A stretch of DNA of 64,000 nt. Origin: an uncultured Pseudobdellovibrionaceae bacterium. Lineage in GTDB: Bacteria > Bdellovibrionota > Bdellovibrionia > Bdellovibrionales > UBA1609. How positions within the stretch are numbered: the first letter of the stretch is position 1; each line of letters opens with the position of its first letter. The position numbers and the translations under genes were made by a program. The notes beneath the pieces are model-generated. The model saw nothing but the letters and a program-made list of their open reading frames with translations. It was not told where the DNA came from and did no database searches. Shown here piece after piece: positions 23,179 through 56,132 of the stretch. Where the stretch lies: positions 5,376-69,375 of the forward strand of contig CAZVOP010000008.1 of assembly GCA_964628445.1 (NCBI GenBank), given 5' to 3'.

Positions 23179-23255
23179 GGGGTGGTAGTTAAGTTGGTTA
23201 TAACGTCCGCCTGTCACGCGGAAGGCCGCGGGTTCGAGTCCCGTCCACCCCGCCA
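23179..23255 (+). tRNA. tRNA-Asp (anticodon GTC)
   Basis: Manual cloverleaf: GGGGTGG-TA-GTTA-AGTTGGTTA-TAAC-G-TCCGC-CTGTCAC-GCGGA-AGGCC-GCGGG-TTCGAGT-CCCGT-CCACCCC-G-CCA. It is colinear with E. coli tRNA-Asp and has an encoded CCA. Confidence 0.95.
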
Positions 23256-23402
23256 TTTCAGATCCTAGAGGTCTGGTCACCTTTCGGTTCCCCAAAATCT
23301 TACATTCTGTTGTGTTGTTCGCCTCCGGCGAACGTGTTCGCGCTTTTGCGCTCACGCTCCCGTTGGTCGCGTTTGATTTACCTTCGGCGCCGAAGGTGTT
23401 GG
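23248..23402 (+). repeat. 155-bp direct repeat, copy A (last 8 nt of tRNA-Asp plus a hairpin-rich downstream element)
   Basis: Aligns by eye with 34129-34283 with 4 mismatches. It contains hairpins GTTCGCC-tcc-GGCGAAC (23317-23333) and GCGC-tttt-GCGC, and the ACCTTCGGCGCCGAAGGT palindrome (23379-23398). Confidence 0.9.
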
Positions 23403-23426
23403 GGTGGACGGGACTCGAACCCGCGG
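23401..23426 (-). repeat. inverted 26-nt copy of the tRNA-Asp T-arm/acceptor 3' half
   Basis: GGGGTGGACGGGACTCGAACCCGCGG is the exact reverse complement of 23226-23251. No complete cloverleaf surrounds it. Confidence 0.9.
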
Positions 23427-23498
23427 GTGAGGGGGAGTGGCAGCCCCGCCAATTTTCCCTCAACGGGAAACGATTTTTCGGTTCAGCCAATCCCAGGT

Positions 23499-24050
23499 TC
23501 AGTAAGTCAAGAACGTCAGGTGATCATTTTCACTCATAATATTTGGTTTGCGACAGAAGTTCTGAGGCATTTTGAGAAAACACCACAAGATTGTTTCTTC
23601 TATGACGTTCAAAGTGATGGCGATGTAAGAGGCATAGTATCAAGAGGCACTTCGCCGAGAAGCGATACGTTTAATTCGCTTAGAGGAAAGATCAACACTC
23701 TGATCCAGGCAGCTGGCCCAGCCACGGGAGAAGTTCAGCAAGCCCTTGTTGAAAAGGGCTACGATCATCTTCGCAGCCTATGTGAAGTGGTTGTTGAAAC
23801 AGATCTTCTCCAGGGCGTCACCAAGAGGTATCAGCCGAATGTTCGGATGACCGTCCTCGACAAGATAAGGTGCGATCGACTTCCGACCGCTATCGAAGCG
23901 ATTCAGCCTGTATTTGATAAGTGCTGCAGACAAATAGCGGCACATTCTCAACCGCTTGAGACTTTAAATGTGAGAGCCAATCTCACAGATTTAAAAGCTG
24001 ATTTTGCCGCCGTATCTTCGGCAAGGGACCTGTATCTCAATGGAAAATAA
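23499..24050 (+). pseudogene. 5'-truncated AAA_13/PrrC-RloC-like ABC-type ATPase (C-terminal ~180 aa only)
   Basis: The frame reads QVIIFTHNIWFATEV (a D-loop/H-loop-like block of AAA_13 ATPases) followed by a C-terminal helical region. Upstream, the same frame runs through repeat and tRNA-derived DNA. No Walker A is present. Confidence 0.5.
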
Positions 24051-24869: not shown

Positions 24870-24902
24870 CAGAAGAACATTTGGGATGGCACGATGGGTT
24901 AG

Positions 24903-25012
24903 GGCTAGTTAGCCTGGTTACAAAAGCCAGAAATCGCCTGAAATCACTCGACGTCACGAAATGGCTGACTTAGCCCAATATCAGACCTAAATATTCGGAA
25001 CTACAAGAGCTG
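24903..25012 (+). repeat. ~110-bp direct repeat, copy 1 (flanks the DUF2235 cassette)
   Basis: Aligns by eye with 26118-26227, with many substitutions in the middle. Long exact blocks are GGCTAGTTAGCCTGGTT and GGCTGACTTAGCCCAATATCAGACCTAAATA. Confidence 0.85.
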
Positions 25013-25063: not shown

Positions 25064-26077
25064 ATGAAAAAGACAATTTTTATTTTCAATGACGGAACTG
25101 GACAATATTTAAAAAGCGAAGCTGTAACGAATGTTGCAAAACTTTATCGTTGTAGGCCAGGCGAAATTGGCAAGCAGAACTCCGCGGATGAATTCAAAAT
25201 CGATTCATCAAATGGCAATGTTTCGATTTATATCCGTGGAATTGGCACCATTGACAATCGATTCGTGCAAGAACCAAAGGACCAGTCTATCTGGGACAAA
25301 ATTTGTAGTTTATTTTCAACGAAGGCAAGGGAGCTTGGAGAGCAAGTCAGTGGCACCACGATCATTGACAGAGTCCAGCGATCATATGATCTATTCAATG
25401 AGTTCTATGCACATGGCGACGACATTATTTTAGTCGGTTTCAGCAGAGGAGCTGCTTCGATCAGGATATTGGCTTCTGAGTTGGTCAAACGTCACAATGT
25501 TAATATCAAATATATGCTAGTTTTTGACACAGTTTACTCTGTCATGGGCCAAATCAAAATCTTAGACAATGCCCCAACCGATCGTTTCGCAGATTTTGAT
25601 TTATCGCCGAAAATTCTTCAATGTGATCATTTAATTGCAGGAGATGAGATGAGGGAGAAATTTCCGATCTCGCCAATTAACAAACGTGAAGGGGTTCGTC
25701 AGGTTCTATTCGCAGGGTCACACTCTGATGTCGGGGGCGGACATTCCGCATGTGGTTTGTCCGATATAAGTCTCTCTTTCGCTTTGGAGCAGTTGCGATC
25801 ATATGGCTACGACTCCGATGCAAAAGCTCTTGCAAGTTTGAATGTCGCACCAAACATTCAACAAGAAATAACTTTTGTTGTATTGGGAGGAACCGGCCAA
25901 AGACATTTCCCCAGAAAATTGCAAGAACTGGAATTCGTTGTACATCGCTCGGTCATAGATCGTTCAGCCATAAGAGGAGCTGTTTCGATCGCTTTGGCTC
26001 AGCTTAGTACTTTTACGACGAAATCTGGGGATGAACTGGTCAATCCAAAGGATATTGACTCAAGCTTTGATTTATAG
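25064..26077 (+). CDS. DUF2235 alpha/beta hydrolase (T6SS Tle1-like phospholipase family)
   Basis: IFIFNDGTGQ N-terminus, GFSRGAASIR nucleophile elbow, and the FAGSHSDVGGGH block typical of DUF2235. Confidence 0.8.
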   Translation: MKKTIFIFNDGTGQYLKSEAVTNVAKLYRCRPGEIGKQNSADEFKIDSSNGNVSIYIRGIGTIDNRFVQEPKDQSIWDKICSLFSTKARELGEQVSGTTIIDRVQRSYDLFNEFYAHGDDIILVGFSRGAASIRILASELVKRHNVNIKYMLVFDTVYSVMGQIKILDNAPTDRFADFDLSPKILQCDHLIAGDEMREKFPISPINKREGVRQVLFAGSHSDVGGGHSACGLSDISLSFALEQLRSYGYDSDAKALASLNVAPNIQQEITFVVLGGTGQRHFPRKLQELEFVVHRSVIDRSAIRGAVSIALAQLSTFTTKSGDELVNPKDIDSSFDL

Positions 26078-26117
26078 CTCGAACGCACTAATTGGCTTGG
26101 ATAGCATGATGTATCAA

Positions 26118-26227
26118 GGCTAGTTAGCCTGGTTGCAAAAATGAATGTCACCCAAGATCACCCGACGTCACACGTTTGGCTGACTTAGCCCAATATCAGA
26201 CCTAAATAATCGGAATTACAGGTGCTG
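26118..26227 (+). repeat. ~110-bp direct repeat, copy 2
   Basis: See 24903-25012. This copy directly abuts the tRNA-3'-end copy at 26229. Confidence 0.85.
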
Positions 26228-26228
26228 T

Positions 26229-26244
26229 GTCCACCCCGCCATTT
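26229..26244 (+). repeat. direct 16-nt copy of the tRNA-Asp 3' end plus flank (att-like)
   Basis: GTCCACCCCGCCATTT is identical to 23243-23258. Confidence 0.8.
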
Positions 26245-26458: not shown

Positions 26459-27223
26459 TCATCTAGAATAGATGAATTCCTTGGCCTTCTGTGCAACCCC
26501 TTCGGCTCCTCCGAACAGATGATATCCATCAATATTCATCATTTCCAGATCCCTAAAGGCTTCTCGAATGACGGATTCAGGAAACTCAATCTTAATGAGT
26601 AAACTCTTTTGAATTTCATCAATTTTATCCGAGAGGGAAGGTTCTAGAGATAAATCCAGTAAAAAAATACTCTTCTGCATCAAGGGACGCTCAAAAAAAG
26701 GAGCAGGTTTTATGGGAAGGGGTGGAAACTTTCTGGAAGATCTGATGAGGCTTATAAAAAGTTTATTTTTCAAATTCGTGATCTGTCCTCCAAGAGTGTG
26801 GAGATCCGAGTAATTTTCGCCGAGCTTTTTCTTATACTGTTCGAGATTGAGGGCAAAGAGGGTCTTTGAGGCTAGGGAGTAGCGAGTAAAGTAGGTGGCA
26901 ATATAGGGCGAGAACGTCCAGTCGAGCAAACGCGTGGGACACCCATGATGTTGCATGATTTGCATAACATCGATCCACGTAAGATCGGTAGGAGCGTTGA
27001 TTTTCGTGTAGGCAATACTGTCCCTAAAGTAGTTGAGTGCCTTAAATTCAATATCCGGCCAATTGCTTTCCTGAATGTTTTGGTGGAAAAGATGACGATA
27101 TAGCGAGGATGAAAGATCAAATTTGGAATCTGCATGTCCTCTCCAAATGAATTCACCCTCAGAATTTAATTGGTCAATGAGAGATTTAACATGTGACCAT
27201 TTATCAAGAACATAGGTTTCCAT
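26459..27223 (-). CDS. FRG domain protein
   Basis: FIWRGHADSKFDLSSSLYR and MQHHGCPTRLLDWTFSPYIATYF match the FRG domain signature (FRGq...; HyG.pTrlLDwT). Confidence 0.8.
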   Translation of the reverse strand: METYVLDKWSHVKSLIDQLNSEGEFIWRGHADSKFDLSSSLYRHLFHQNIQESNWPDIEFKALNYFRDSIAYTKINAPTDLTWIDVMQIMQHHGCPTRLLDWTFSPYIATYFTRYSLASKTLFALNLEQYKKKLGENYSDLHTLGGQITNLKNKLFISLIRSSRKFPPLPIKPAPFFERPLMQKSIFLLDLSLEPSLSDKIDEIQKSLLIKIEFPESVIREAFRDLEMMNIDGYHLFGGAEGVAQKAKEFIYSR

Positions 27224-27274: not shown

Positions 27275-27952
27275 ATGCGTAAAGAAATCGAAATTTTAAG
27301 AAATGAAGTCGAAACGGCTTTAAGGAGTTGCCTTGCTCTAAATCAATTCAAGAGATCATTGGGCTGTGAGGAGTGCACTGAAAAGATAAATGAGAACATA
27401 TATTTTTGGATGGTCTTCGAACGATCAGTTCAAGCAAGTATGTTTATTGGGCTTAGAAGACTATTTGAAAACGAAAATGACACTTTTAATTTTCAAATGA
27501 TGATAAACCTATTTCGGGCAAATATAGGGGAATTTTCTAAGAGCTCTTTGCGCCAGAGAAAAATTGAGGGGTCTGCAAATGCTAGTGAATGGATTGATCG
27601 CTACATGGACGACGCGCATGAAGCAACTGAGGACGATTTCTGCCGGCTCTCGAGGCTTGCAAAAAGCAAGAACAAGCAAATAAAAGAAATATCTATTAAA
27701 ATCGCCAGTAAGGTTTATGCACACGCGATTCATGATGACCGAGAAATTTCTAATGAATTGATGAGCGACCTAAAGATTTCCGATGTCGAAGATGCGCTGA
27801 ATGCGATTTGGCATGTGTATCAGCAAATTTGGCAAATGTATGAAAACGGGCGAAGTCCTGAAATGGAAATTGGAAAGTACCCTTATGAGAAAGAGATTGT
27901 TGATGCCGTTTCAAAGCAGATTGGATGCACTTGCCTAAAGACTGATGCCTGA
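27275..27952 (+). CDS. hypothetical protein (helical), divergent from the FRG gene
   Basis: 225-aa ORF in AT-rich DNA. I cannot place a convincing HEPN Rx4-6H motif. Confidence 0.5.
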   Translation: MRKEIEILRNEVETALRSCLALNQFKRSLGCEECTEKINENIYFWMVFERSVQASMFIGLRRLFENENDTFNFQMMINLFRANIGEFSKSSLRQRKIEGSANASEWIDRYMDDAHEATEDDFCRLSRLAKSKNKQIKEISIKIASKVYAHAIHDDREISNELMSDLKISDVEDALNAIWHVYQQIWQMYENGRSPEMEIGKYPYEKEIVDAVSKQIGCTCLKTDA

Positions 27953-28575
27953 GTCGATGACTTCTGTGACGCATATAATATTCGAAACAAATAGTTCCAA
28001 ATTTGTCCACTCGACCCCGCCAATTTTCGAAAGCCTGCCGAGAGCAAAATGCCAAAAAGCCAGTAGAGCTTAATAGTTGAAAACACAGTAAGAGGTCGAC
28101 GTTCCACGTTTGAATATTTCTTGAAATGCCTTAAAATGCGCCACATTTACCAACTCAATTGGGCGTGAATTCAAAAGGGGCATCAAATATGGATGAGCCG
28201 CTGAGTTCTTGCATGTCGCAACATTGAATCTGAAACTGCATATTTGGTTCTCAAAACGGCGGCTTTGGCCGCGAGTCCGGAAGGATTTTGTTTAGGATAA
28301 CATGCGAAAATGGTCCTTCTTCAAATTGATATGCAGTCATAGTCCGACCATTGAGCGCAGACGCATAGTCTCTGTCCGTGTAATCAACTAGTCTGCCAGA
28401 GAAGGATTTTCCAATATTTGAGAAAGCAGTTTCTCTGTGCCGCGTTTGAAAGGACAAGGATCTAGTGCATAGTTGACTTTTGACTTACGGAAAGAAAGGT
28501 CTAAACTCGATTCAGCTTGGGTTTTGGCAGAGGGGAAGTAAGTGTTCAAATTCAGTCCTGATATGATAAGCGCAG

Positions 28576-30192
28576 CTAGCTGACAGTTTTTCTTTCACCT
28601 TTGACTCGGAAAAACATTTCCTCCTTAACTACGACGTTGACACCTGGCAAATGCTTTTTGAACGTGGATTCCATTTCCGTTCTTAGTTCCTGCTTTTTGG
28701 ACGATAAATATTCTGCTTCAGCTTGAATCAGAATGGCATCATGCATCGGTAAGATAATCTTAACCGGAAATTTTTCCGCTATAGAAATTATCGACTCTTT
28801 TAAAATATACGAAGCAGTACCCTGAATTATTTGATTTACGGCCCATCTCCGCTCTGCGGGAGAAAGTTTCCCAGTATGTTTTCTATACCGGCGGTTTCCG
28901 TTTATTGAGGCGGAATATCCCTGAGTTTCCATCTCTCGCCAAACTCGTTCCTTCCACCGTGTAATTTCATGGAACTGACTAAATAGCTTTTCAAATATAG
29001 TTGTCGATTCGACTCTTGATTTTCCAAGAAGTTCAGATAGAAAACCGACAAGGCCATCCTTTTCCATCCCAAATGAAAAGGCCAGGAAAACTACTTTAAA
29101 TATAGATCGGTACCCCGGCTGTCCCATTATGTCGTTAGCGAGACTTTCGTAAAGATCTCCGGCGTTGCAAAGGTCTTTTAGATACTGATCATTAGAAATA
29201 GACGCTAGGATCGCCGGCTCAAAGCAAGAATAGTCAAAATAGATAAATTGCTTTCCTGTTTCCGGCACGATGACATCGCGGTGCTCTTTTTTTAGGATCT
29301 GAAGACGCGGATCGTTTACCAGAATTCGTCCTGTTATAGTGCCCATTATATCATAAGTGGGATTAATGTAGTCAGAGCTTGAAAGTGATATATCCAAAAG
29401 TGATCGCCTGGTGCGCTCATCTTTAACTAAATCTAGTATGAGTGAAAATTTAGGATCTAAGTGTTTACGTGCTTTCAAAAAGCTGAAGATATCTGTTTCT
29501 TCACTTAAAATAGATTCGCCAGTTTGGCTCAAATACCTTTTGATTTCTTCGTAAGATGCAGTGGTTCCTTTGAAGCCATGATGAGTACGTAACTCATATA
29601 GTTTTTTGAAGTGGTCAGCCTCTATATTCGAAAGTTTTTCTTCAATTTTAGATTTATCAACTTTTATTCCATCCAGATGCGAGCGAAGAAAAATATTAAA
29701 GGCTTTTATCTCACAGTTTTCAAAGCGTTCCCATTCGCCTCGTTTTTCCAAATCTTTTTTAATCGCAAAATATCGACCGGCTAACCTTTGTAAAAATATT
29801 TGACAGTCACTCTCGTTTAACTGTTTCTTTGAAGAAAAGCCTTTAAGTTGTCTGCATATCGAAAGTAATTCGCTGTAGTCTGCATAGTAATCCTTCAAAA
29901 GCTGATGAAGGCTCCACGGCACATCCGTGCCGAATTCTTTTTTCGGATGTCCAAAGTAGTAATATGCCAGAGACGTAATATCCACGAAGGTTGGATTTAA
30001 TGTCTTAGGTTCAATTTTTTTCTTAAGTAGGCTTCTTTCAATAGAAAAGGTCACAATAGTGCGGTTCTCTTTAGCAAGCCCATTAATATCAGATTTTAAA
30101 AAACCTTCGTTATCGTCATACTGGAAATATCTAAAATCATTTGCTTCAGTGTTGTTTGGGACGGCGATGAGAAATAGTTCAGAATTATTCAT
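28576..30192 (-). CDS. stand-alone family-A DNA polymerase (no 5'-3' exonuclease; DEDD exonuclease motifs not evident)
   Basis: PolA blocks: TGRILVNDPRLQIL, motif A FIYFDYSCFEPAILA, motif B RSIFKVVFLAFSFGM, RRWAVNQIIQGTASYILK, and motif C LPMHDAILIQ. The start overlaps the RT stop (ATGAATAA). Confidence 0.85.
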   Translation of the reverse strand: MNNSELFLIAVPNNTEANDFRYFQYDDNEGFLKSDINGLAKENRTIVTFSIERSLLKKKIEPKTLNPTFVDITSLAYYYFGHPKKEFGTDVPWSLHQLLKDYYADYSELLSICRQLKGFSSKKQLNESDCQIFLQRLAGRYFAIKKDLEKRGEWERFENCEIKAFNIFLRSHLDGIKVDKSKIEEKLSNIEADHFKKLYELRTHHGFKGTTASYEEIKRYLSQTGESILSEETDIFSFLKARKHLDPKFSLILDLVKDERTRRSLLDISLSSSDYINPTYDIMGTITGRILVNDPRLQILKKEHRDVIVPETGKQFIYFDYSCFEPAILASISNDQYLKDLCNAGDLYESLANDIMGQPGYRSIFKVVFLAFSFGMEKDGLVGFLSELLGKSRVESTTIFEKLFSQFHEITRWKERVWREMETQGYSASINGNRRYRKHTGKLSPAERRWAVNQIIQGTASYILKESIISIAEKFPVKIILPMHDAILIQAEAEYLSSKKQELRTEMESTFKKHLPGVNVVVKEEMFFRVKGERKTVS

Positions 30193-31828
30193 AGACCACT
30201 ATCCCGTCATACAGATCTCTAAAATTTGTCTTATCGGGGCCGATAAAATATTGCCCCTGCATTTTTTCTCTAACCCTACCGTATGTTCCTTTAGTCGAGT
30301 GATTTGAATGAGGTGCAATATACTCTCGTATTCCTTGGTTGAAAGGTATTTCATGGACCGAGATCAACATTTGCCGTTGTAACCAAGAGCTTTTGCATGA
30401 TTGGAACTTTTGAAGCAGTTTGGCTTTTTGGTCAGGGTCGCCAAATTTGCCAATATAAAGACTCGCTCCAGCCAGATCGGGAGCCTTCGTCGAGCGTTGA
30501 AGTACCGACAAGGCGTATTTAATCAAGTCGTCATGCTTATGATTCTTCAATATAAATAACGACCAGATTCTGTAGTTCTGCCAACTATAAATTGACTTCG
30601 ATTGCATAACTAAAAAATCTCTTATTTTTCCGAGATGTCCTTCTTCAAGATGTGCGAAGGCTAAGTATTTAATTAGTGAGTCCGTAGATGCTGGTTGATG
30701 CTCCAATTCATTGATTATTTGTTCTGTGAGGCCGGTGAAATAATCATTGGGAATATCTAATTCTTCGCAACTTAATATTCCCTCTATCCTCCGAATCGCG
30801 AATCTGAAACCTCTAGATTGGGTATTGTCATTTTGAACTAGGTTCAATGTATAGTCCCGCAGGTACGGAAGACTTTTTTGAATTAGCTCAAGTGAGCGGG
30901 AGCGCCACATGTTGTCTATCGCTTCCAAGTGCCTGTCTGTATTCATAAATGAATCGGTAATTTTAGATTCCCCAAGAGTTCCAATTTTTGTTTTCGCAGA
31001 ATTTAAATTAAGTCCGATTGCTCTTAAGGTTTCGGAGAGTAATTTTAAGGCTCTCTTCGCTGAGTTTTTGTCATCACATACAATTCTTATATCGTCCATG
31101 TAACGAAAATACTCAAAGCCTGCTTTTTGCATCTCCCGATCAACATAGTCCATTAAAATATTGGCTAAAAATGATGAGGCATCTCTGTTTTGAGGAATGC
31201 CGTTTGTGCCATTGAAACTCCAAAGTTTCATAAAGTCTGTAAGCAGCTCGATTGTCCTTCGGAGCTTAATTTTTTCTGAAGGTGGCGCATTGAGATCTCT
31301 AATCTTAGTTTCTAGGCACCGTTTTAGTTGAGCGATCTGAATATTTTCATAATAATTAAATACGTCTGTTATAAGGATGGTCTTATTGGGAGAAGCCGAA
31401 TGTCGGATAAGCCCTTCAAAAGCCTTAAATTGCTCAACATGATGTTTAAATAGGAATTTATCGTTGCGGGATTGCCCATCATTGTATCGATGGCTAAATG
31501 AATTGTCAGAGAGTAATGGGTCGTAGTAGGGGATTAAATAACTAGTAAGGGCCAAATAAATTAGGCGATCGTAAACATTAGTTTCCAAGCTATATCGTAT
31601 TAGAAAGTCTTTTTTAGGAACATTAAATATTTCAGCTTTTTCTGGAGTGTACACTCCATGATTTTCGTGGATATTTTCATAATAGTATTTACTGATGTCA
31701 TCTCGATTAAGACAGTCCCGAAATCGAATAGGGTCAGGAAACCAATCGTCTTTAAGATCCTCTTTTAAATCGCGAATTGCCTTCGCGATATTTATATCGA
31801 AGCCGCCTAAGCCGATTTCTTTAGTCAT
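30185..31828 (-). CDS. UG/Abi-type (defence-associated) reverse transcriptase with a C-terminal alpha-repeat domain
   Basis: RT motifs ITDVFNYYENI, GIPQNRDASSFLANILM, FRYMDDIRIV (YxDD) and LNLNSAKTKI. These are followed by about 250 aa of helical repeat-like sequence. Confidence 0.9.
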   Translation of the reverse strand: MTKEIGLGGFDINIAKAIRDLKEDLKDDWFPDPIRFRDCLNRDDISKYYYENIHENHGVYTPEKAEIFNVPKKDFLIRYSLETNVYDRLIYLALTSYLIPYYDPLLSDNSFSHRYNDGQSRNDKFLFKHHVEQFKAFEGLIRHSASPNKTILITDVFNYYENIQIAQLKRCLETKIRDLNAPPSEKIKLRRTIELLTDFMKLWSFNGTNGIPQNRDASSFLANILMDYVDREMQKAGFEYFRYMDDIRIVCDDKNSAKRALKLLSETLRAIGLNLNSAKTKIGTLGESKITDSFMNTDRHLEAIDNMWRSRSLELIQKSLPYLRDYTLNLVQNDNTQSRGFRFAIRRIEGILSCEELDIPNDYFTGLTEQIINELEHQPASTDSLIKYLAFAHLEEGHLGKIRDFLVMQSKSIYSWQNYRIWSLFILKNHKHDDLIKYALSVLQRSTKAPDLAGASLYIGKFGDPDQKAKLLQKFQSCKSSWLQRQMLISVHEIPFNQGIREYIAPHSNHSTKGTYGRVREKMQGQYFIGPDKTNFRDLYDGIVVYE

Positions 31829-31864
31829 GAACTTTAAGTCGAGCGCAAGTAGTTAAGAGCAGTT

Positions 31865-32062
31865 CTAAAGAGAGGCATCGAGACCTTCTATAGATTTCGA
31901 TTGTTTTTCATCTTTAGTATGCTTTAAAGGTGGCTGCTCGGAGAAGGCTAAGCGTGTGTTTAAAATTTTCCATTGGGGCCAGTTTCGGATTTCACGAGTA
32001 GAGTCTAAGATTGTTTTAATTGGGTCAATTAACCCTGGGTCTGCATCAGTTTTAGCTGTCAT
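31865..32062 (-). CDS. small hypothetical ORF, translationally coupled to the deaminase gene (could instead be non-coding)
   Basis: 65 aa. The ATG overlaps the deaminase stop (ATGA). No recognisable family. Confidence 0.35.
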   Translation of the reverse strand: MTAKTDADPGLIDPIKTILDSTREIRNWPQWKILNTRLAFSEQPPLKHTKDEKQSKSIEGLDASL

Positions 32063-33606
32063 ATTACTCCTCCATTGCTTAAATCGGACGTTATCAGTGT
32101 TTCTTTTTCTAAATATGAACTCACCACTAATGGCACCCTGACGTTAGCTGATTTTCTATCGAAAACTGTAACCGCGCCAGAGCCCCTGAGTTTTCTCTTT
32201 AATTGATGGCCCATTCCTAACTTCATAGAAAAAAGATCCAAATATCTTCTGGCTGCAACGCCTATGAAATGCTCAAAAGTGACTTCTCCAGAGGAGAGTT
32301 GATTTAAAGAAATTGCATCTCCGTGAAGATTACCTGCTTGGCTTTTGGGGTATGGCTCAACGAACAGGGTTCTTTTAATTCCTGCCTCAACAATATGCTT
32401 TGCACAGTTATGGCAAGGGAAAGTAGTACAGTATATTGTTCCATCCCTGGTAGTTGCACCTATTCTCGTGCTACTTAAGATTGCGGACATTTCAGCATGT
32501 GTCGCACGATTAAATTCAGTGATATCGGTTAAGCCGGTCTCCTCTAGGATTTTCAGCCCTTCGCTTAACAGGTCAGGATCTGGACCGGACTTAAATTTCT
32601 TCATTACATTCAGGACTATTTGATTCTTGCTCTTCTCATTGGGGTCATAACCCAATCTAAAATCTCGCCAATCCTCTTCTGGAGGGGTCGGCCAATAAGG
32701 ACCGCCACCAGAACGGGGCACATCATTGGATCCAAGGCCAATAACATCGCCATGGGCGTTTACTAGAACGGCGCCAACCTGCCTAGATAGATCAGCGGAT
32801 CTAACCGAAAAGGAGTACGCCATATACATCATGTGTTCGTCGAACGTTGGGGTTATATGGGGATTTCCAAAGATAAGGTCTAAAGCTCGAACCAATTGTT
32901 CTCTAATTGCCTTATCGTCCTGAGCGTCGAACTTTAGGAAGAAATCTGACAACTGAAAGGTATCGCGTGTTTGTTGGCCATACGCAGATTCTTCGGAGAT
33001 ATCTTTTTCTATCAGCTCATAAGCCTCGGATTTTTTAATCCCTCGTTTATTGTCTAAAAACTGAATTCGATCCTCTTCCGGTGAGAAGACGCCAATCTGA
33101 TAATATCCAACGCCATAAGTTTCGCGTAAAAGCTTTGATTCTTCAGGGTTTTTTAAAGATCTAAATAGGTAGGCAGTTGCAGCAGGAGTTTTGCCGCGAT
33201 AGCTTTTCACCATTTGAACGGCGTACTTGGCTAGTAAAGACGGACTCTTATAATGTTTTCTTACCTTATTGCCAGCTTCCATCTGAGAATAAATTTCGTT
33301 AAATGGAGAGGCGCTATCGATTTTAAGATTTAGCTTTTGAAAATATTGATGAGAGAAAAAATCACTAAATTTAATTGGCTGAAGTTTATAATCGTACTCT
33401 GTTAGAACTTGGTCCAGGACTGTCTGTATTCTACCCAAATCAGTGCCAGTTGCAGCCACTAATCCAATAAACAATTCGGATTTTGATCCCCCTAAATTTT
33501 GCATGGGCAAAGTATATTTCTCTGAACTTTCTGTGTACAAGTCGATCTTGGGAATTAGAGTAAATTTGATGGAACTTATGATTTTGAGACCCCTGCGCAT
33601 GCACAT
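32059..33606 (-). CDS. anti-phage dCTP deaminase-like protein (N-terminal kinase-like region plus C-terminal dCMP/cytidine deaminase zinc domain)
   Basis: Deaminase signature THAEMSAI...FPCHNCAKHIV (HAE...PCxxC). The N-terminus ELFIGLVAATGTDLGRI resembles the N-terminal module of the described defence dCTP deaminases. The start is uncertain (33606, 33600 or 33504). Confidence 0.75.
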   Translation of the reverse strand: MCMRRGLKIISSIKFTLIPKIDLYTESSEKYTLPMQNLGGSKSELFIGLVAATGTDLGRIQTVLDQVLTEYDYKLQPIKFSDFFSHQYFQKLNLKIDSASPFNEIYSQMEAGNKVRKHYKSPSLLAKYAVQMVKSYRGKTPAATAYLFRSLKNPEESKLLRETYGVGYYQIGVFSPEEDRIQFLDNKRGIKKSEAYELIEKDISEESAYGQQTRDTFQLSDFFLKFDAQDDKAIREQLVRALDLIFGNPHITPTFDEHMMYMAYSFSVRSADLSRQVGAVLVNAHGDVIGLGSNDVPRSGGGPYWPTPPEEDWRDFRLGYDPNEKSKNQIVLNVMKKFKSGPDPDLLSEGLKILEETGLTDITEFNRATHAEMSAILSSTRIGATTRDGTIYCTTFPCHNCAKHIVEAGIKRTLFVEPYPKSQAGNLHGDAISLNQLSSGEVTFEHFIGVAARRYLDLFSMKLGMGHQLKRKLRGSGAVTVFDRKSANVRVPLVVSSYLEKETLITSDLSNGGVI

Positions 33607-34103
33607 TTAGAGGGTTGATGGGGCGACGAGTCGAGAAAGGGCCGATCTGAAAATTTGAATTTAGGAATTGTGAGCCGAACTTGCTAATGACAGTGAGCAA
33701 GTGCTTTGGATAAATTTGGATCTGTGAATGGCCTTTAGCGAGCCACGTAAGCCGACTACATCGGCTTACGAATCCTCGCACTTCGTTTGCGGATGGAAAT
33801 GAATTAGACGGTTCGATATTTCCGAGAGATTGCCATCTTTCAAAGCCGCCTCTCCGAAGAATAAGATCGGTCAATCCGCTCATTAGCGGCATATCCGATG
33901 ATATGCCGTTTGAAAATCCGACACCTAATATAAACGCGTCATTTGCAGAAGATTCGAAAACCATTTGTCGCCTCAAGTTTGGGTGGCAAAATCGGATTTT
34001 CTTAATGATTGATCATCATAACGTCGAGAAAGTCCGATTTGAATGTGATTCAGGGCATTAATCGGACACTGCTCATGGCGACGCCTTATCCGGCAGAGTG
34101 GAG

Positions 34104-34139
34104 AAAGGTTCGATACTCGTCCCATTTGCCCCGCCATTT
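34104..34139 (+). repeat. degenerate tRNA-3'-half-like direct repeat (copy B)
   Basis: AAAGGTTCGATACTCGTCCCATTTGCCCCGCCATTT has a T-loop-like GGTTCGA and ends in CCGCCATTT like the tRNA-Asp end. It is near-identical to 35060-35094. Confidence 0.75.
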
Positions 34140-34283
34140 CAGATTCTAGAGGTCTGGTCACCTTTCGGCTCCCCAAAATCTTACATTCTGTTGTGTTGTT
34201 CGCCTCCGGCGAACGTGTTCGCGCTTTTGCGCTCACGCTCGCTTTGGTCGCGTTTGATTTACCTTCGGCGCCGAAGGTGTTGG
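34129..34283 (+). repeat. 155-bp direct repeat, copy B
   Basis: See 23248-23402. It includes the palindrome at 34260-34279. Confidence 0.9.
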
Positions 34284-35059: not shown

Positions 35060-35094
35060 AAAGGTTCGATACTCGCCCCATTTCCTCCGCCATT
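35060..35094 (+). repeat. degenerate tRNA-3'-half-like direct repeat (copy C)
   Basis: AAAGGTTCGATACTCGCCCCATTTCCTCCGCCATT. Together with copy B it brackets the GST gene. Confidence 0.75.
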
Positions 35095-52240: not shown

Positions 52241-52748
52241 AGCGGCAGCTATTGCGCGGGCTCGGCAGGGCTTATGAAAAGCTTTTTTTCAACAAATTTT
52301 AGGTCCTACGGCTATCGTTTAGTTCTTGTGAAAGCCGTTTAAGAATTTGAGCTGAAGCCAGTAAAAGTTGGTCTAAGGTAGCGTTATAAATCAATATTCG
52401 AGCACTCACGGCGAAAGTGGCGATGCTTACTAGATCATCCCACTAAGCGAACAGGAGATGTTTCTGACGGATAGACTACTAACGCCTCTCCCATGAGAGG
52501 CCGTGGTCATCAACGCATGGTCGATAGTTTGAAGTCGCGTGTTAGGCAGTGTTCCGATCAGTGCAGGCACTGCAGCGAGTCTAAAGAAGGCGAGCCGAAT
52601 ATTACCCGACTGGCCATAGAGCATGCACGAGGCGCCTCGATCGGTTTAGAAATACTTAATCCGTAATAAAGATGTTTAGTCTCTAGATGAGTCATAAGTA
52701 TTTCTCAAATATTGCCGAACGATAGAATAAGCATTCTTGGAGGGGTTA

Positions 52749-55700
52749 ATGAATTTTAGGCTGCTGACCGACGCAATGGATGAAATTATTAACGAGGGTA
52801 GTGTTCGCGTTGAAGTCATCAGAAAAATGCAGATAAGACTTGAAGAGCTGATTAACGAAAGCTCTGAACAGGGCTACTTAATACTCCTTGAGGGAATCAA
52901 ATTATTTAACCAGCAAAAAATATCAAGTTACAAAAAGGCTAGAGAGCAATTTCAACGTCTCAAAATCTATGAAGAGTTGAAGCCATATCGAATATTTCTA
53001 TTATCGGCATGTTATTATTTTTTGGACGAATTTGATCAGGGAATAAAAATTCTTAAGGAATCAATGCAGGATTCAAATAGTAGGGAAGACTTAGTTTTAG
53101 AGGCGCTAGGATTCTTTTATACAGATTTGAAGAAATATGCACAGGCAATAGAGTCATTCGATGGCGCGGTTGCCCTAAATTCGAAGCGAAAATCTTTATG
53201 CCAGTGGGGAAAGGCGATCGTACTTTGCAAGCTTAATAAACGCGATGAGGCAGAAAACTGTTACAAACAGTCTTTAGAGGGATCCGTCGATAATAGGGCT
53301 AGGGGTCTCGAGGGACTGGCAGAGCTGGCTCTTATACAGGATAAGCATGAGGAGGCCTTCGACATATTAAATCGTGCGCTTGAGGAGCCAAACCTTAGTG
53401 AATGGTCGAAGGTTTCACTTCTGCGAACTAGAGCAAACGTATTTTATGACGTAGACAGGGAGATGGAGGGAATTCAGGATTTAAAGTCAGCGTTGAGTCT
53501 TAATGGGCATAATCTTGATCATCGACTTCATATATATAAGAGACTAGCGGATCTTTATATTGAACTGGATGACCTAGAAAGCGCTAGGCAAGCAATCGAA
53601 GATGGATCTCATGTTCCTATTGAAAGCGAAAGAAAGGCTTCGCTGAATTTTGTCCGAGCTGAATTACTATTTATGGAAAATGAGGCCGATTCGGCTTTGG
53701 CTAATTTGGATAAAATAGCTCAGGGCAGTAAGGATCCTACTTGGATTAGAGAAGTTCATAAACGAAAATTTAGCCACTATCTGGATGAAAATAAGGTTGG
53801 TTTAGCTAAAATTGAAATTGATAAGCTTTCTAAGATGGCGGAAGAAAATTCACATAAAGTTGACGTTTTGAGGAAAAAAGCAAAATTGAATATTTCTCAG
53901 GGCCGAAAGGACGAAGCTTTAGATAATCTTAAGCAGGCTTTAAGTTTAAATGAAGATTTGGGAATAAGGCGTCCACTGCTTCGACAACATAGCGATCTAC
54001 TCTTGGAAATGGGCAAGATAGACGAAGCCGAAATAGAACTAAAATCGGCATTGGAAAATGAAGTCGGAGGCCAGCAATCAGCTTTGGCTTGGCGGGCATT
54101 AGCTCAGATTGAGCGGGAGAGGGGAAATTTTGAAGAGGCAATTCACAATATCGATAAGTCATTAGAGTTGTGGAAGGTTCCTAGGCATCAAGCCTCTTGT
54201 CTAATTGTTAAATCTAATATTTACAAAGCCGAAGGTATTTACTTTAAGGCATTTCAATCGTTGGACGATGCTCTTAAATTGGATTTCCCAAACGCATTTA
54301 AGTTTAATGTTCTCATGGCAAAGGGCAAGCTGTCGCGCGAGACACAAAAATTTGAAGAAGCTCTGGAAATTATAGATAAAGCGGCTGCGACTTTAGGCGG
54401 TAACAAGCCTAACCCCATCTGTCTTTATGAAATGGCCCTAACGCTAGAAGGGCTAGGTGATGTTGCAAAGGCTATCGATAAATATCGAGAGGCTTTTCGG
54501 AGTGAAAAGTCATCGGATTTTCGGTCAGTGATTAAATTTAGGGAAGGCGTATTGTGCTTTGAAAATCAAAAATATCCTGAGGCAGTCGAAGCATTTAGAA
54601 TGTCGCTTGAGCTAAATTCAAAGGGCCCCTCTATCATCGCTCTCTATCTCGCATTTTCTTTGGTAAAAGAACAAAGTGATGATTTAAAATTAACTGTCTT
54701 GGATTCATTTTCAAAAATGGGTGATATCGAAAAGTGTTCTGTCCATATCGCGAAGGGATGGTGGTTTTATGCAAATCGTAGATTTGGCGAGGCTATAAAG
54801 AGTTTCGAGATCGCAAATGTTTGCGAAGATCATCCTTTGGCGGGGTTTGTAAAGTTTTATTTAGCAAGCGCTTACTTTGAGTTAGGTCAAAATAAAGAGG
54901 CACTCAAACTAGCAAAACAAGCTGAGAATTTTCTTTCAACAGGAGAGTCCAAGAATCTCATGGCGCCATATAGTGTTCAGGAGCTTCTTGCTAAAGTACA
55001 CGAACAGAGTGAGGAACTTTTTATTGCAAAAGACTATCTTGAGCGAGCGATTGCAGGTGGTTCCAGAAACGCTATTGGTATATTTGAGATTGATAATAAA
55101 ATTTCACGTTTTTTAAAAAAAGGAAAGGATAGGGAAAAGGCTTTTGAGGAGGAGATGATCCAGCAGGAAAATAAAAGCAAAAATTCAATATCATTACGCA
55201 ACAACAGCATGAAAATTGGGAATCATCGGTCAGATAAAATTATTGAGTCGATAGGGAATGCATTGATTTTCGGCAACCCTCATTTAGGAGAGTCATTTCG
55301 AAATGGTTTCGAATATACATGTCACTACACAAGCGCGGAAACGGCTCTTTTTCACATTCTTCCTTCGCAATATAATCACGACTTTGGAAATGAGACAAAA
55401 GTTATTCAGTTGCGGCTAAATCCTCTGGGGCAGGCAAATGATATAGAGGAAGGGGAGTTTAAATTAAATTTGAAGCAGGAGGATAAGACCTTTCCCGAGC
55501 GTCTTTTTTCTAGTCTTAAGACTCAAATAAAAGAAGAATTCAAAGTGTTTTGTATGAGCTGGTCGAATGTGCCTTTTGACGAGATCACATATTCTTCTGC
55601 GCCGTTTTTGATCCCGCCTATGTGGTCTCGCTATGGTCGAGTACATACTGGGGTTGTTATAATATTTGACCTCGAAAAATTTAGAGCTTGTGTCGAAGAG

Positions 55701-56132
55701 TTCTTCGCAAAAAATGAATATAGTATATTCGCACTTAAGCGGGTAATTTACGGTTATCCCGGCCGGCAGGTTGGGGTAAAAACTAGAATTGATAGTGACG
55801 AGCTCCTCCAGTTAAACACTCCTGTTGATTTGAAGTCTGTCTTTAAAGAGCGGGATGGATCAGTCAACGTGGAGCGATTGAACGCACTGTTTTTTAAGCC
55901 TCCTCACTGGAATTACGAGCGTGAAATTCGATTGGTGGCTCAGATTGGAAAACCTGGCCCGATTCCAATGAAAATCCCTAGCAGTTGCATTCGTGGGATA
56001 ATTCTTGGCTCTCAATGCAAAAGGGGGTTTCGAAAGATGTTCAACAGGGCCTGCGAAGATAATGATTGGTTTTTATTGGAACACAATCCAACATCTGAAG
56101 GGCCTCATGGCGCTTTGTCTCGAGTAGGTTGA
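52749..56132 (+). CDS. TPR-repeat protein with a C-terminal DUF2971 domain
   Basis: About 800 aa of TPR-like repeats, then CHYTSAETALFHIL, NDIEEGEF, FCMSWSN...MWSRYGRVHTGVVIIF and PHWNYEREIRLV (DUF2971 pattern). ATG 52749 follows a GGAGGGG RBS. The DNA is AT-rich. Confidence 0.8.
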   Translation: MNFRLLTDAMDEIINEGSVRVEVIRKMQIRLEELINESSEQGYLILLEGIKLFNQQKISSYKKAREQFQRLKIYEELKPYRIFLLSACYYFLDEFDQGIKILKESMQDSNSREDLVLEALGFFYTDLKKYAQAIESFDGAVALNSKRKSLCQWGKAIVLCKLNKRDEAENCYKQSLEGSVDNRARGLEGLAELALIQDKHEEAFDILNRALEEPNLSEWSKVSLLRTRANVFYDVDREMEGIQDLKSALSLNGHNLDHRLHIYKRLADLYIELDDLESARQAIEDGSHVPIESERKASLNFVRAELLFMENEADSALANLDKIAQGSKDPTWIREVHKRKFSHYLDENKVGLAKIEIDKLSKMAEENSHKVDVLRKKAKLNISQGRKDEALDNLKQALSLNEDLGIRRPLLRQHSDLLLEMGKIDEAEIELKSALENEVGGQQSALAWRALAQIERERGNFEEAIHNIDKSLELWKVPRHQASCLIVKSNIYKAEGIYFKAFQSLDDALKLDFPNAFKFNVLMAKGKLSRETQKFEEALEIIDKAAATLGGNKPNPICLYEMALTLEGLGDVAKAIDKYREAFRSEKSSDFRSVIKFREGVLCFENQKYPEAVEAFRMSLELNSKGPSIIALYLAFSLVKEQSDDLKLTVLDSFSKMGDIEKCSVHIAKGWWFYANRRFGEAIKSFEIANVCEDHPLAGFVKFYLASAYFELGQNKEALKLAKQAENFLSTGESKNLMAPYSVQELLAKVHEQSEELFIAKDYLERAIAGGSRNAIGIFEIDNKISRFLKKGKDREKAFEEEMIQQENKSKNSISLRNNSMKIGNHRSDKIIESIGNALIFGNPHLGESFRNGFEYTCHYTSAETALFHILPSQYNHDFGNETKVIQLRLNPLGQANDIEEGEFKLNLKQEDKTFPERLFSSLKTQIKEEFKVFCMSWSNVPFDEITYSSAPFLIPPMWSRYGRVHTGVVIIFDLEKFRACVEEFFAKNEYSIFALKRVIYGYPGRQVGVKTRIDSDELLQLNTPVDLKSVFKERDGSVNVERLNALFFKPPHWNYEREIRLVAQIGKPGPIPMKIPSSCIRGIILGSQCKRGFRKMFNRACEDNDWFLLEHNPTSEGPHGALSRVG

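Follow-up and report, generated by a model that had tools for sequence, protein, structure and literature searches.

A small-variant UG9 reverse transcriptase and its family-A DNA polymerase beside an anti-phage dCTP deaminase with a coupled small protein, in a tRNA-Asp defence island of an uncultured Pseudobdellovibrionaceae bacterium

The window analysed here is a stretch of 64,000 nucleotides (nt) from an uncultured Pseudobdellovibrionaceae bacterium (GenBank assembly GCA_964628445.1, contig CAZVOP010000008.1, positions 5,376 to 69,375 of the forward strand), in which four co-oriented genes encode an anti-phage dCTP deaminase, a protein of 65 amino acids (aa), a reverse transcriptase (RT) of the UG/Abi type and a DNA polymerase of family A (PolA). 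An original prediction, made from the letters of the window, had treated these four genes as one new defence module. We conclude, with a probability of about 0.8, that the locus consists of two known anti-phage systems arranged head-to-tail on the minus strand, both within a single cassette of ~6.1 kb, part of a low-GC defence island that spans 10.9 kb at a tRNA-Asp gene: module A, comprising the deaminase and a coupled 65-aa partner (31865-33606), and module B, comprising a small-variant UG9 RT and its PolA (28576-31828). Each is a fairly divergent addition to a kind of system already known, the two lying next to each other, and the RT-PolA pair is not a new class of defence. The value of the result is mainly corrective, in that the pair is recognised as a UG9 system, known since 2008, which is here parked beside a dCTP deaminase.

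The physical description of the locus was borne out when the sequence and its translations were read again. All four open reading frames (ORFs) lie on the minus strand (Table 1). The TGA of the deaminase and the ATG of the small ORF share an ATGA at 32059-32062, an overlap of 4 nt; the stop of the small ORF and the ATG of the RT gene are separated by 36 nt (31829-31864); and the RT stop overlaps the PolA start by 8 nt at 30185-30192 (ATGAATAA). Every motif quoted in the prediction was recovered, namely ITDVFNYYENI, GIPQNRDASSFLANILM, YMDD and LNLNSAKTKI in the RT, DYSCFEP, RSIFKVVFLAFSFGM, QGTASY and MHDA in PolA, and the zinc motifs HAE and PCHNC in the deaminase. The region is AT-rich as described, with a GC content of 0.38-0.44 against ~0.50-0.56 in its flanks. 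Comparison with Pfam and PADLOC profiles, which had been proposed as a check, produced matches to RVT_1, DNA_pol_A and dCMP_cyt_deam_1, all far beyond chance.

The separation into two modules is based on synteny, because neither module was found with the other in 83 UG9 loci and 88 deaminase loci. The UG9 loci were the context of the closest relatives together with 80 loci from species-representative genomes of many phyla, and they were searched by tblastn with the four window proteins; the scan of representative genomes was queried with an RT alignment, since a single-protein RT query reaches close relatives only and found nothing. Neither the deaminase (0/83) nor the small ORF (0/83) occurred in the UG9 loci, and UG9 RT or PolA was absent from all 88 deaminase loci. 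The closest relatives of the RT (L001 and L003, 55-57% identity) possess RT and PolA without a deaminase, while the closest relatives of the deaminase (57-72% identity) occur without a UG9 module. The claim that all four genes constitute a single defence module is not upheld by these results. Its mechanistic form, in which DNA synthesis by RT and PolA would be wired to the manipulation of nucleotide pools by the deaminase (for example through dUTP-rich product DNA or pool sensing), can draw on the common strand, the 4-nt and 8-nt overlaps and the 36-nt gap, the lack of a consensus terminator or promoter between the modules, and the single cassette, bounded by tRNA-end remnants, that holds all four genes. 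It is very improbable nonetheless, given the mutual absence of the modules from each other's loci, including those of the nearest relatives, and the fact that each half matches a system already catalogued as self-sufficient.

The 36-nt spacer yielded no consensus promoter or terminator, the counts from the promoter/terminator scan being at background level, and no Rfam match at E<=1. Because only 36 nt lie between the modules, with no detectable terminator, modules A and B are probably co-transcribed in this genome, which we read as the packaging of two systems in one cassette and not as one mechanism. Two considerations count against a strict separation: the same gap, without detectable promoter or terminator, makes co-expression with the deaminase likely and lineage-specific interplay possible, and the counts of 0/83 and 0/88 limit co-occurrence only to ~3-4%, the loci being representatives and not an exhaustive census.

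Table 1. Features of the locus, its island and the wider window (positions are those of the 64,000-nt window)
Feature	Position	Strand	Description
Anti-phage dCTP deaminase	32059-33606	-	515-aa ORF; kinase-like N-terminal module and zinc deaminase
Small protein, downstream companion of dCTP deaminases	31865-32062	-	65-aa ORF
Spacer of 36 nt	31829-31864	-	Seam of deaminase module and UG9 module; read directly from sequence
Class 1 UG/Abi reverse transcriptase, UG9 small variant	30185-31828	-	547 aa; RT domain with YMDD and C-terminal alpha-helical repeat domain
RTasPolA, RT-associated family-A DNA polymerase	28576-30192	-	538 aa; Pol I large fragment-like
tRNA-Asp	23179-23255	+	ARAGORN; Rfam tRNA
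Direct repeat D1 (165 nt), first copy, starting in tRNA-Asp 3' end	23238-23402	+	Repeat search; island integration site, GC drops from here
Direct repeat D1 (165 nt), second copy	34119-34283	+	95% identity to first; deaminase-side edge of cassette and island
tRNA-3'-half-like remnant	34104-34138	+	Repeat family D2; deaminase-side edge
tRNA-3'-end-like remnant	28010-28025	+	Repeat family D6, 81% identical to tRNA-Asp 3' end; PolA-side cassette edge
Weak D2 repeat copy	27990-28024	+	Repeat search
ORF of 246 aa, apparent PDC-S06 remnant	23310-24050	+	Matches C-terminal ~180 residues of ~850-residue PADLOC PDC-S06 profiles, 9.8e-37
Tle1-like phospholipase/lipase	25064-26077	+	Pfam T6SS_Tle1-like_cat, 1.1e-32
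FRG-domain protein	26459-27223	-	PADLOC PDC-S15, 4.6e-36
HEPN AbiU2 protein	27275-27952	+	Pfam, 5.5e-13
Gene of 1131 aa with many TPR repeats and C-terminal DUF2971	52737-56132	+	PADLOC PDC-S31, 8.4e-11

The RT was assigned to UG9 through the PADLOC profile RT_UG9_small, which it matched over positions 3-541 of 541 (613 bits, 1.3e-184), followed by UG9_large (319 bits) and UG21 (199 bits); the match to Pfam RVT_1 was 1.1e-15. This confirms the original placement among UG/Abi enzymes, or defence-associated reverse transcriptases (DRTs), as opposed to the RTs of group II introns, retrons or diversity-generating retroelements. It belongs to the small variant, having 547 aa that match from residue 5 onwards and no N-terminal trypsin-like protease, and the genes upstream are the 65-aa ORF and the deaminase, with no metallo-beta-lactamase (MBL) hydrolase. 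In an AlphaFold (AF2) model (predicted local distance difference test, pLDDT, 92.7) residues ~299-522 are all-helical, as anticipated from the translation, where a helical repeat tail had been noticed. The best full-length structural matches of the model, found with Foldseek, were DRT4/UG15, DRT6, AbiK, Abi-P2 and AbiA (template modelling score, TM, 0.53-0.68), and for this reason the RT is assigned to Class 1. DRT10 was rejected as a name for the system, being that of UG17.

Among 522 RT homologues collected, the nearest are 57% and 55% identical to the window RT. The PolA gene immediately follows that of the RT in 80 of the 83 UG9 loci, the other three ending at a contig edge just after the RT, and the exact 8-nt overlap of RT stop and PolA start is found in 59 loci, so the overlap is a family trait. 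This survey of adjacency, proposed alongside the original prediction, and the 59 shared overlaps favour its view that RT and PolA are translationally coupled and probably act as a unit. What stands is the conserved two-gene unit; the overlap, put forward as evidence from this one locus, is family-wide and not specific to it. Plasmid pDSHI01 of Dinoroseobacter shibae carries RT and PolA with the same overlap, annotated as 'RNA-directed DNA polymerase' and 'DNA polymerase', and no deaminase.

The belief that a UG/Abi RT had never been described together with a family-A polymerase in one system is refuted. UG9-PolA was described by Mestre et al. 2022, who credit the pairing to Kojima & Kanehisa 2008, whose 'family D' is now UG9, and PADLOC-DB includes a hidden Markov model (HMM) for RTasPolA. 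The prediction had also entertained an RT from a UG class with a known, unrelated partner; UG9 indeed has a known partner, but that partner is PolA itself. According to Mestre et al. 2022, 60 of 79 UG9 members belong to the small variant, which lacks the MBL/protease pair, and UG9 is enriched in defence islands, at that time without experimental validation. The only mention of UG9 found after 2022 deals with the large variant and its accessory MBL/protease pair, and the 2026 papers on DRT7 and DRT3 mention neither UG9 nor PolA. The window pair resembles the small-variant systems in its full-length HMM matches, RT-then-PolA order, 8-nt overlap, alpha-repeat domain, absence of protease and MBL, and location in a defence island. 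It differs in the distance of its proteins from the nearest sequences on record (RT 55-57% and PolA 40-43% identical), in its position 36 nt behind the operon of another system, and in residue F374 of PolA motif B, which is Tyr in most members.

Confinement of such pairs to phage or plasmid replication modules had been named as a possible objection and was checked. They are not so confined: no match was found in 50,697 phage genomes, only two full-length matches in 2.9 million viral contigs, and in five plasmid records, which include conjugative plasmids, the pair travels as cargo. Those plasmid records and two viral contigs are what could be cited for a role in the replication or mobility of mobile elements in place of defence, to which we give hardly any credence. 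Besides the scarcity in phage and viral sequence, most loci are chromosomal and their contexts varied; the neighbours in the window are PDC-S15/FRG, HEPN AbiU2, a Tle1-like lipase and the dCTP deaminase; Mestre 2022 reported enrichment in defence islands; and the D. shibae pair is cargo between transfer genes, away from the rep locus of the replicon.

At the gene junction (window 30185-30260, minus strand; RTs of L001-L083) the C-terminal residues of the UG9 RTs form an acidic tail that is conserved, ...(Y/V)DE(I/V)SxY(D/E) directly before the stop codon, with the ATG of PolA embedded in its Tyr-Asp/Glu codons; in Bacteroidota-type loci without gene overlap the RT ends ...YDELP(D/E)(F/D)IS. 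This acidic tail, with its hYDE-like motif, may serve to dock PolA. As a priming residue we considered the penultimate Tyr of the RT, which is present in 59/59 loci with overlapping junctions, though the ATG constraint would also permit His, Asn or Asp; it was downgraded, the Bacteroidota-type loci without gene overlap lacking that Tyr. Y60, which lies in a fingers loop and is 91% conserved, is only a candidate handle for priming, by analogy with Y44 of AbiK and Y61 of Abi-P2, which are likewise located in a fingers loop.

PolA matched the PADLOC profile RTasPolA (1.7e-115, profile positions 10-474 of 475) and Pfam DNA_pol_A (1.3e-35), and its AF2 model (pLDDT 88.7) superposes over its full length on the Pol I large fragments of Bst and Aquifex and on the polymerase domain of Pol theta (Foldseek, TM ~0.75). 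In sequence, residues 146-516 align with the Klenow polymerase domain, and the first ~145 residues therefore represent a shrunken exo-like lobe, in which there is no DxE motif and a single near-invariant acidic residue, D71. Residues D320, E325 (at the steric-gate position), R362, K366, Q457, H484, D485 and A486 are invariant in the family. The claim of a family-A polymerase with intact palm and fingers is thus substantiated by the DNA_pol_A match, the invariant residues of motifs A, B and C, and the Pol I fold. Motif C (residues 482-486) reads PMHDA, not HDE, in 55/59 family sequences; the absence of the third motif C carboxylate and of the Exo I-III carboxylates marks a variant inside family A and does not exclude membership. 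Judged from sequence and model, PolA appears competent as a polymerase, without exonuclease activity, and its exo-like lobe vestigial. Real polymerisation of dNTPs is expected because the metal-binding Asp, the steric-gate Glu, the Arg/Lys of motif B and QGTAS are all invariant.

Precedents for the action of such a pair come from related systems. UG/Abi RTs of Class 1 are described as oligomeric, protein-primed and template-free DNA polymerases (PMC13275509), and for DRT4 template-free, protein-primed synthesis has been described in detail (PMC12783706). The protein-primed poly(dT) made by the RT of DRT7 (UG10) is both template and primer for a fused PrimPol, giving a duplex-like DNA product. 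DRT3 combines a Class 1 Drt3b with a Class 2 Drt3a, which make complementary strands, and double-stranded DNA accumulates when the phage protein Gam blocks RecBCD. By analogy, the UG9 RT would make protein-linked, untemplated single-stranded DNA. PolA would extend an existing 3' end, because it cannot initiate de novo; this end might be snapped back or handed off, with the RT product as template, and the outcome would be duplex or hairpin DNA. Such DNA, toxic or acting as a decoy, would accumulate when phage proteins block host nucleases, resulting in abortive infection. We advance this scheme tentatively, at slightly less than even odds. Several points tell against it. No later experimental or mechanistic work on UG9-PolA was found in the literature, and the defence role rests on island enrichment and the mechanism wholly on analogy; a structured non-coding RNA (ncRNA) of low sequence conservation would escape the RNA tests used (Rfam and flank comparison); and PolA activity is possibly reduced or altered, because the equivalent of Klenow E883 is missing throughout the family (HDA).

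Alternatively, synthesis could be RNA-templated, the RT copying an unrecognised ncRNA or mRNA and PolA making the second strand, as in Class 2 DRTs and retroelements. A non-coding stretch of variable length (median ~225 nt) does precede most UG9 RTs, and the ncRNAs of UG2 and UG8 are known to be poorly conserved in sequence. Yet this RT has the Class 1 architecture of an RT domain with alpha repeats and its best structural matches are template-independent; several loci have less than 70 nt upstream of the RT; and in the window that space is occupied by a protein-coding gene of the other system. Rfam scans, at the gathering threshold and at E<=1, returned nothing except tRNA. No convincing conserved DNA upstream of the RT emerged from an alignment of the window with L001 and L003, and the similarity detected by all-against-all blastn of upstream and downstream flanks was confined to near-identical loci or to sequence coding for the RT N-terminus that lies upstream of conservative start calls. 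We consider RNA templating unlikely.

It is likewise doubtful that PolA is something other than a second-strand synthase: an effector or sensor, for example competing with or poisoning phage replication forks or filling or extending phage DNA ends, or a weakened scaffold regulated by an RT-DNA adduct. The family-wide change from HDE to HDA in motif C would suit such roles, as would the faster divergence of PolA than of the RT (40-43% against 55-57% identity in the same loci) and the precedent of DRT1, in which DNA adducts regulate an attached effector (PMC13275509). They sit poorly with the invariance of the metal-binding Asp pair, the Glu at the steric-gate position, the motif B Arg/Lys and QGTAS, and with the closest precedents for a Class 1 RT and a second polymerase, which copy the RT product.

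Protein-primed synthesis followed by copying would place UG9-PolA beside DRT7 and DRT3. With DRT7 (UG10) it shares a Class 1 RT with alpha repeats, a second DNA polymerase and the lack of an ncRNA; however, the second polymerase of DRT7 is a fused PrimPol of the archaeo-eukaryotic primase (AEP) type, which is able to prime, whereas the UG9 partner is a family-A polymerase encoded separately, which requires a 3' end, and the poly(dT) specificity of DRT7 cannot be assumed for UG9. DRT3 similarly has two separately encoded polymerases for complementary strands, the untemplated one coming from a Class 1 RT, but its partner is a second RT with an ncRNA template, while that of UG9 is a DNA-dependent polymerase for which no ncRNA was found. 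DRT4/UG15, DRT6, AbiK, Abi-P2 and AbiA have the YxDD palm and alpha-repeat domain in common with the window RT and match it structurally over its full length; they differ in acting alone or with fused domains, without a dedicated DNA polymerase partner, and the position of the priming Tyr differs among these families. Among Class 1 DRTs, UG9-PolA appears to be alone in recruiting a polymerase of the classical Pol I type. Since both DRT7 and DRT3 have been shown to produce duplex DNA by means of two polymerases, it offers a directly testable third solution, for which the HDA motif specific to the family and the acidic tail of the RT are concrete handles for mutagenesis.

The identification of the first gene of module A as an anti-phage dCTP deaminase holds. 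It scored 432.7 bits against the NCBIfam equivalog NF041025, 'anti-phage dCTP deaminase', for which the curated cut-off is 400 bits, and the match covers profile positions 1-433 of 437, spanning the kinase-like and deaminase domains alike. PADLOC dCTPase (5e-149) and Pfam dCMP_cyt_deam_1 (2.9e-17) were also matched, and 3505 homologues were obtained at E<=1e-20. The true start is probably Met35 (33504) instead of 33606, because the family profiles match only from residues 36-44, homologues have 476-504 aa and a -35/-10-like site lies at 33539-33511. It is established for the family that on infection these enzymes turn dCTP into dUTP, starving phage DNA synthesis.

The window deaminase is like the systems of Tal et al. 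and AvcID (Hsueh et al.) in exceeding the NF041025 cut-off, in its kinase-like N-terminus and HAE/PCxxC domain, and in its defence-island setting. The difference concerns its partners. Tal et al. presented the anti-phage dCTP deaminase as a single-gene system, whereas here it is coupled to a 65-aa ORF; AvcID has a small RNA (sRNA) antitoxin, AvcI, transcribed ahead of avcD, whereas the window and most of its surveyed relatives encode a protein of 55-75 aa directly downstream. Such a downstream protein is absent from both the Tal et al. and the AvcID descriptions. No Rfam match other than tRNA was obtained, though no search aimed at an AvcI-like sRNA was made in the non-coding stretch of ~500 nt that precedes the deaminase.

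The 65-aa ORF, which matches nothing in Pfam, PADLOC or NCBIfam, belongs to the deaminase system and recurs downstream of a large subset of deaminases. An iterated profile HMM, run over six-frame ORFs of all loci, produced 58 matches, of which 52 were classed as lying on the deaminase strand directly downstream of that gene. In a further four loci (L089, L106, L118 and L130) the matches also adjoin the deaminase and were mis-classed only through a wrong estimate of the deaminase end; the remainder are L114, in which the match is upstream on the opposite strand, and the window itself. The same HMM had no match in the 83 UG9 loci (~1 Mb). The survey covered ~90 representative deaminase loci, among them 80 from metagenomes, whose deaminases are 38-46% identical to that of the window. 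Of 79 testable loci, at least 51 have the small ORF directly after the deaminase. It does so too in L085-L087. The nearest deaminase relatives, L168, L169 and L171 (72%, 67% and 57% identity), all three have a called ORF of 61-67 aa that overlaps or abuts the deaminase stop, and none has an RT or PolA. P0185 and P0204 carry the domain of the small protein as a fusion at the C-terminus of the deaminase. Assignment of the small ORF to the RT-PolA module is contradicted by this synteny, the fusions and the lack of matches in UG9 loci.

The family, of 55-75 aa, has the core motif (F/Y)W..LE....V..WPxWK. Exhaustive phmmer searches recovered the true small homologues P0127 and P0129 and the two-copy P0124, which share E(V/I)(K/R)xWPxWK(I/V)xNxxLAFSE. 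P0129 begins 12 nt after a deaminase 58% identical to that of the window and is followed by a gene on the opposite strand, with no RT present. P0124, a metagenomic protein of 150 aa, contains the conserved domain twice in tandem. Substitutions at codon positions 1, 2 and 3 number 2389, 2280 and 3264, and 46% of the identical-residue columns use differing codons; because substitutions concentrate at the third position and codons differ at identical residues, conservation is at the level of protein. A RefSeq plasmid of Vibrio nigripulchritudo (L172, 3948-4127) has an unannotated copy overlapping the end of an annotated 'anti-phage dCTP deaminase'. No small ORF accompanies the deaminase copies of an E. 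coli plasmid and of Zymomonas. We rejected the idea that the PADLOC dCTPase profile contains this domain in the C-terminal part left unmatched, since PADLOC gave no match to the small ORF and the E. coli-type plasmid copy has neither domain nor ORF.

We infer that the small protein serves the deaminase as a regulatory or inhibitory subunit. The fuller proposal, to which we give not quite an even chance, is that a large subset of deaminase systems has in it a second component not described before, coupled, sometimes fused and often missed by annotation, whose role would be to regulate the enzyme, perhaps as a labile protein inhibitor acting in the manner of AvcI. If so, the description of dCTP deaminase defence as 'single-gene' would be incomplete for most members. 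Its occurrence after most surveyed dCTP deaminases suggests that the family frequently has a second, unannotated component, and this conserved partner appears to have gone undescribed so far. In L170/L171 the deaminase and small ORF (57% identical to those of the window) are situated in another defence island, where the neighbours include a resolvase, a protein with a RES domain and an operon resembling CBASS (CD-NTase, Cap15 and TIR).

The island containing both modules is a 10.9-kb low-GC stretch bracketed by the two copies of the 165-nt repeat. Further tRNA-3'-end-like remnants at 26229-26244 and 35060-35094, together with those at ~28010 and 34104, subdivide it, and PolA, RT, small ORF and deaminase all fall within the ~6.1-kb sub-cassette 28025-34104. 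Division into sub-cassettes by tRNA-end remnants suggests successive insertions at a single tRNA hotspot, although the stretch from 23 to 37 kb showed no integrase gene.

The 246-aa ORF that begins within the first copy of the 165-nt repeat looks like the truncated remnant of a larger candidate defence gene. On either side of the Tle1-like gene lie direct repeats, 42 and 51 nt long (24884-25012 and 26099-26227; 83-92% identity, 1215 nt apart). The FRG/PDC-S15 and HEPN AbiU2 genes are divergent and occupy a sub-cassette of their own adjoining the UG9 module. The 1131-aa gene, which may be another candidate defence gene, alone fills a second low-GC patch, with a GC content of ~0.40 and a GC skew of 0.16-0.24.

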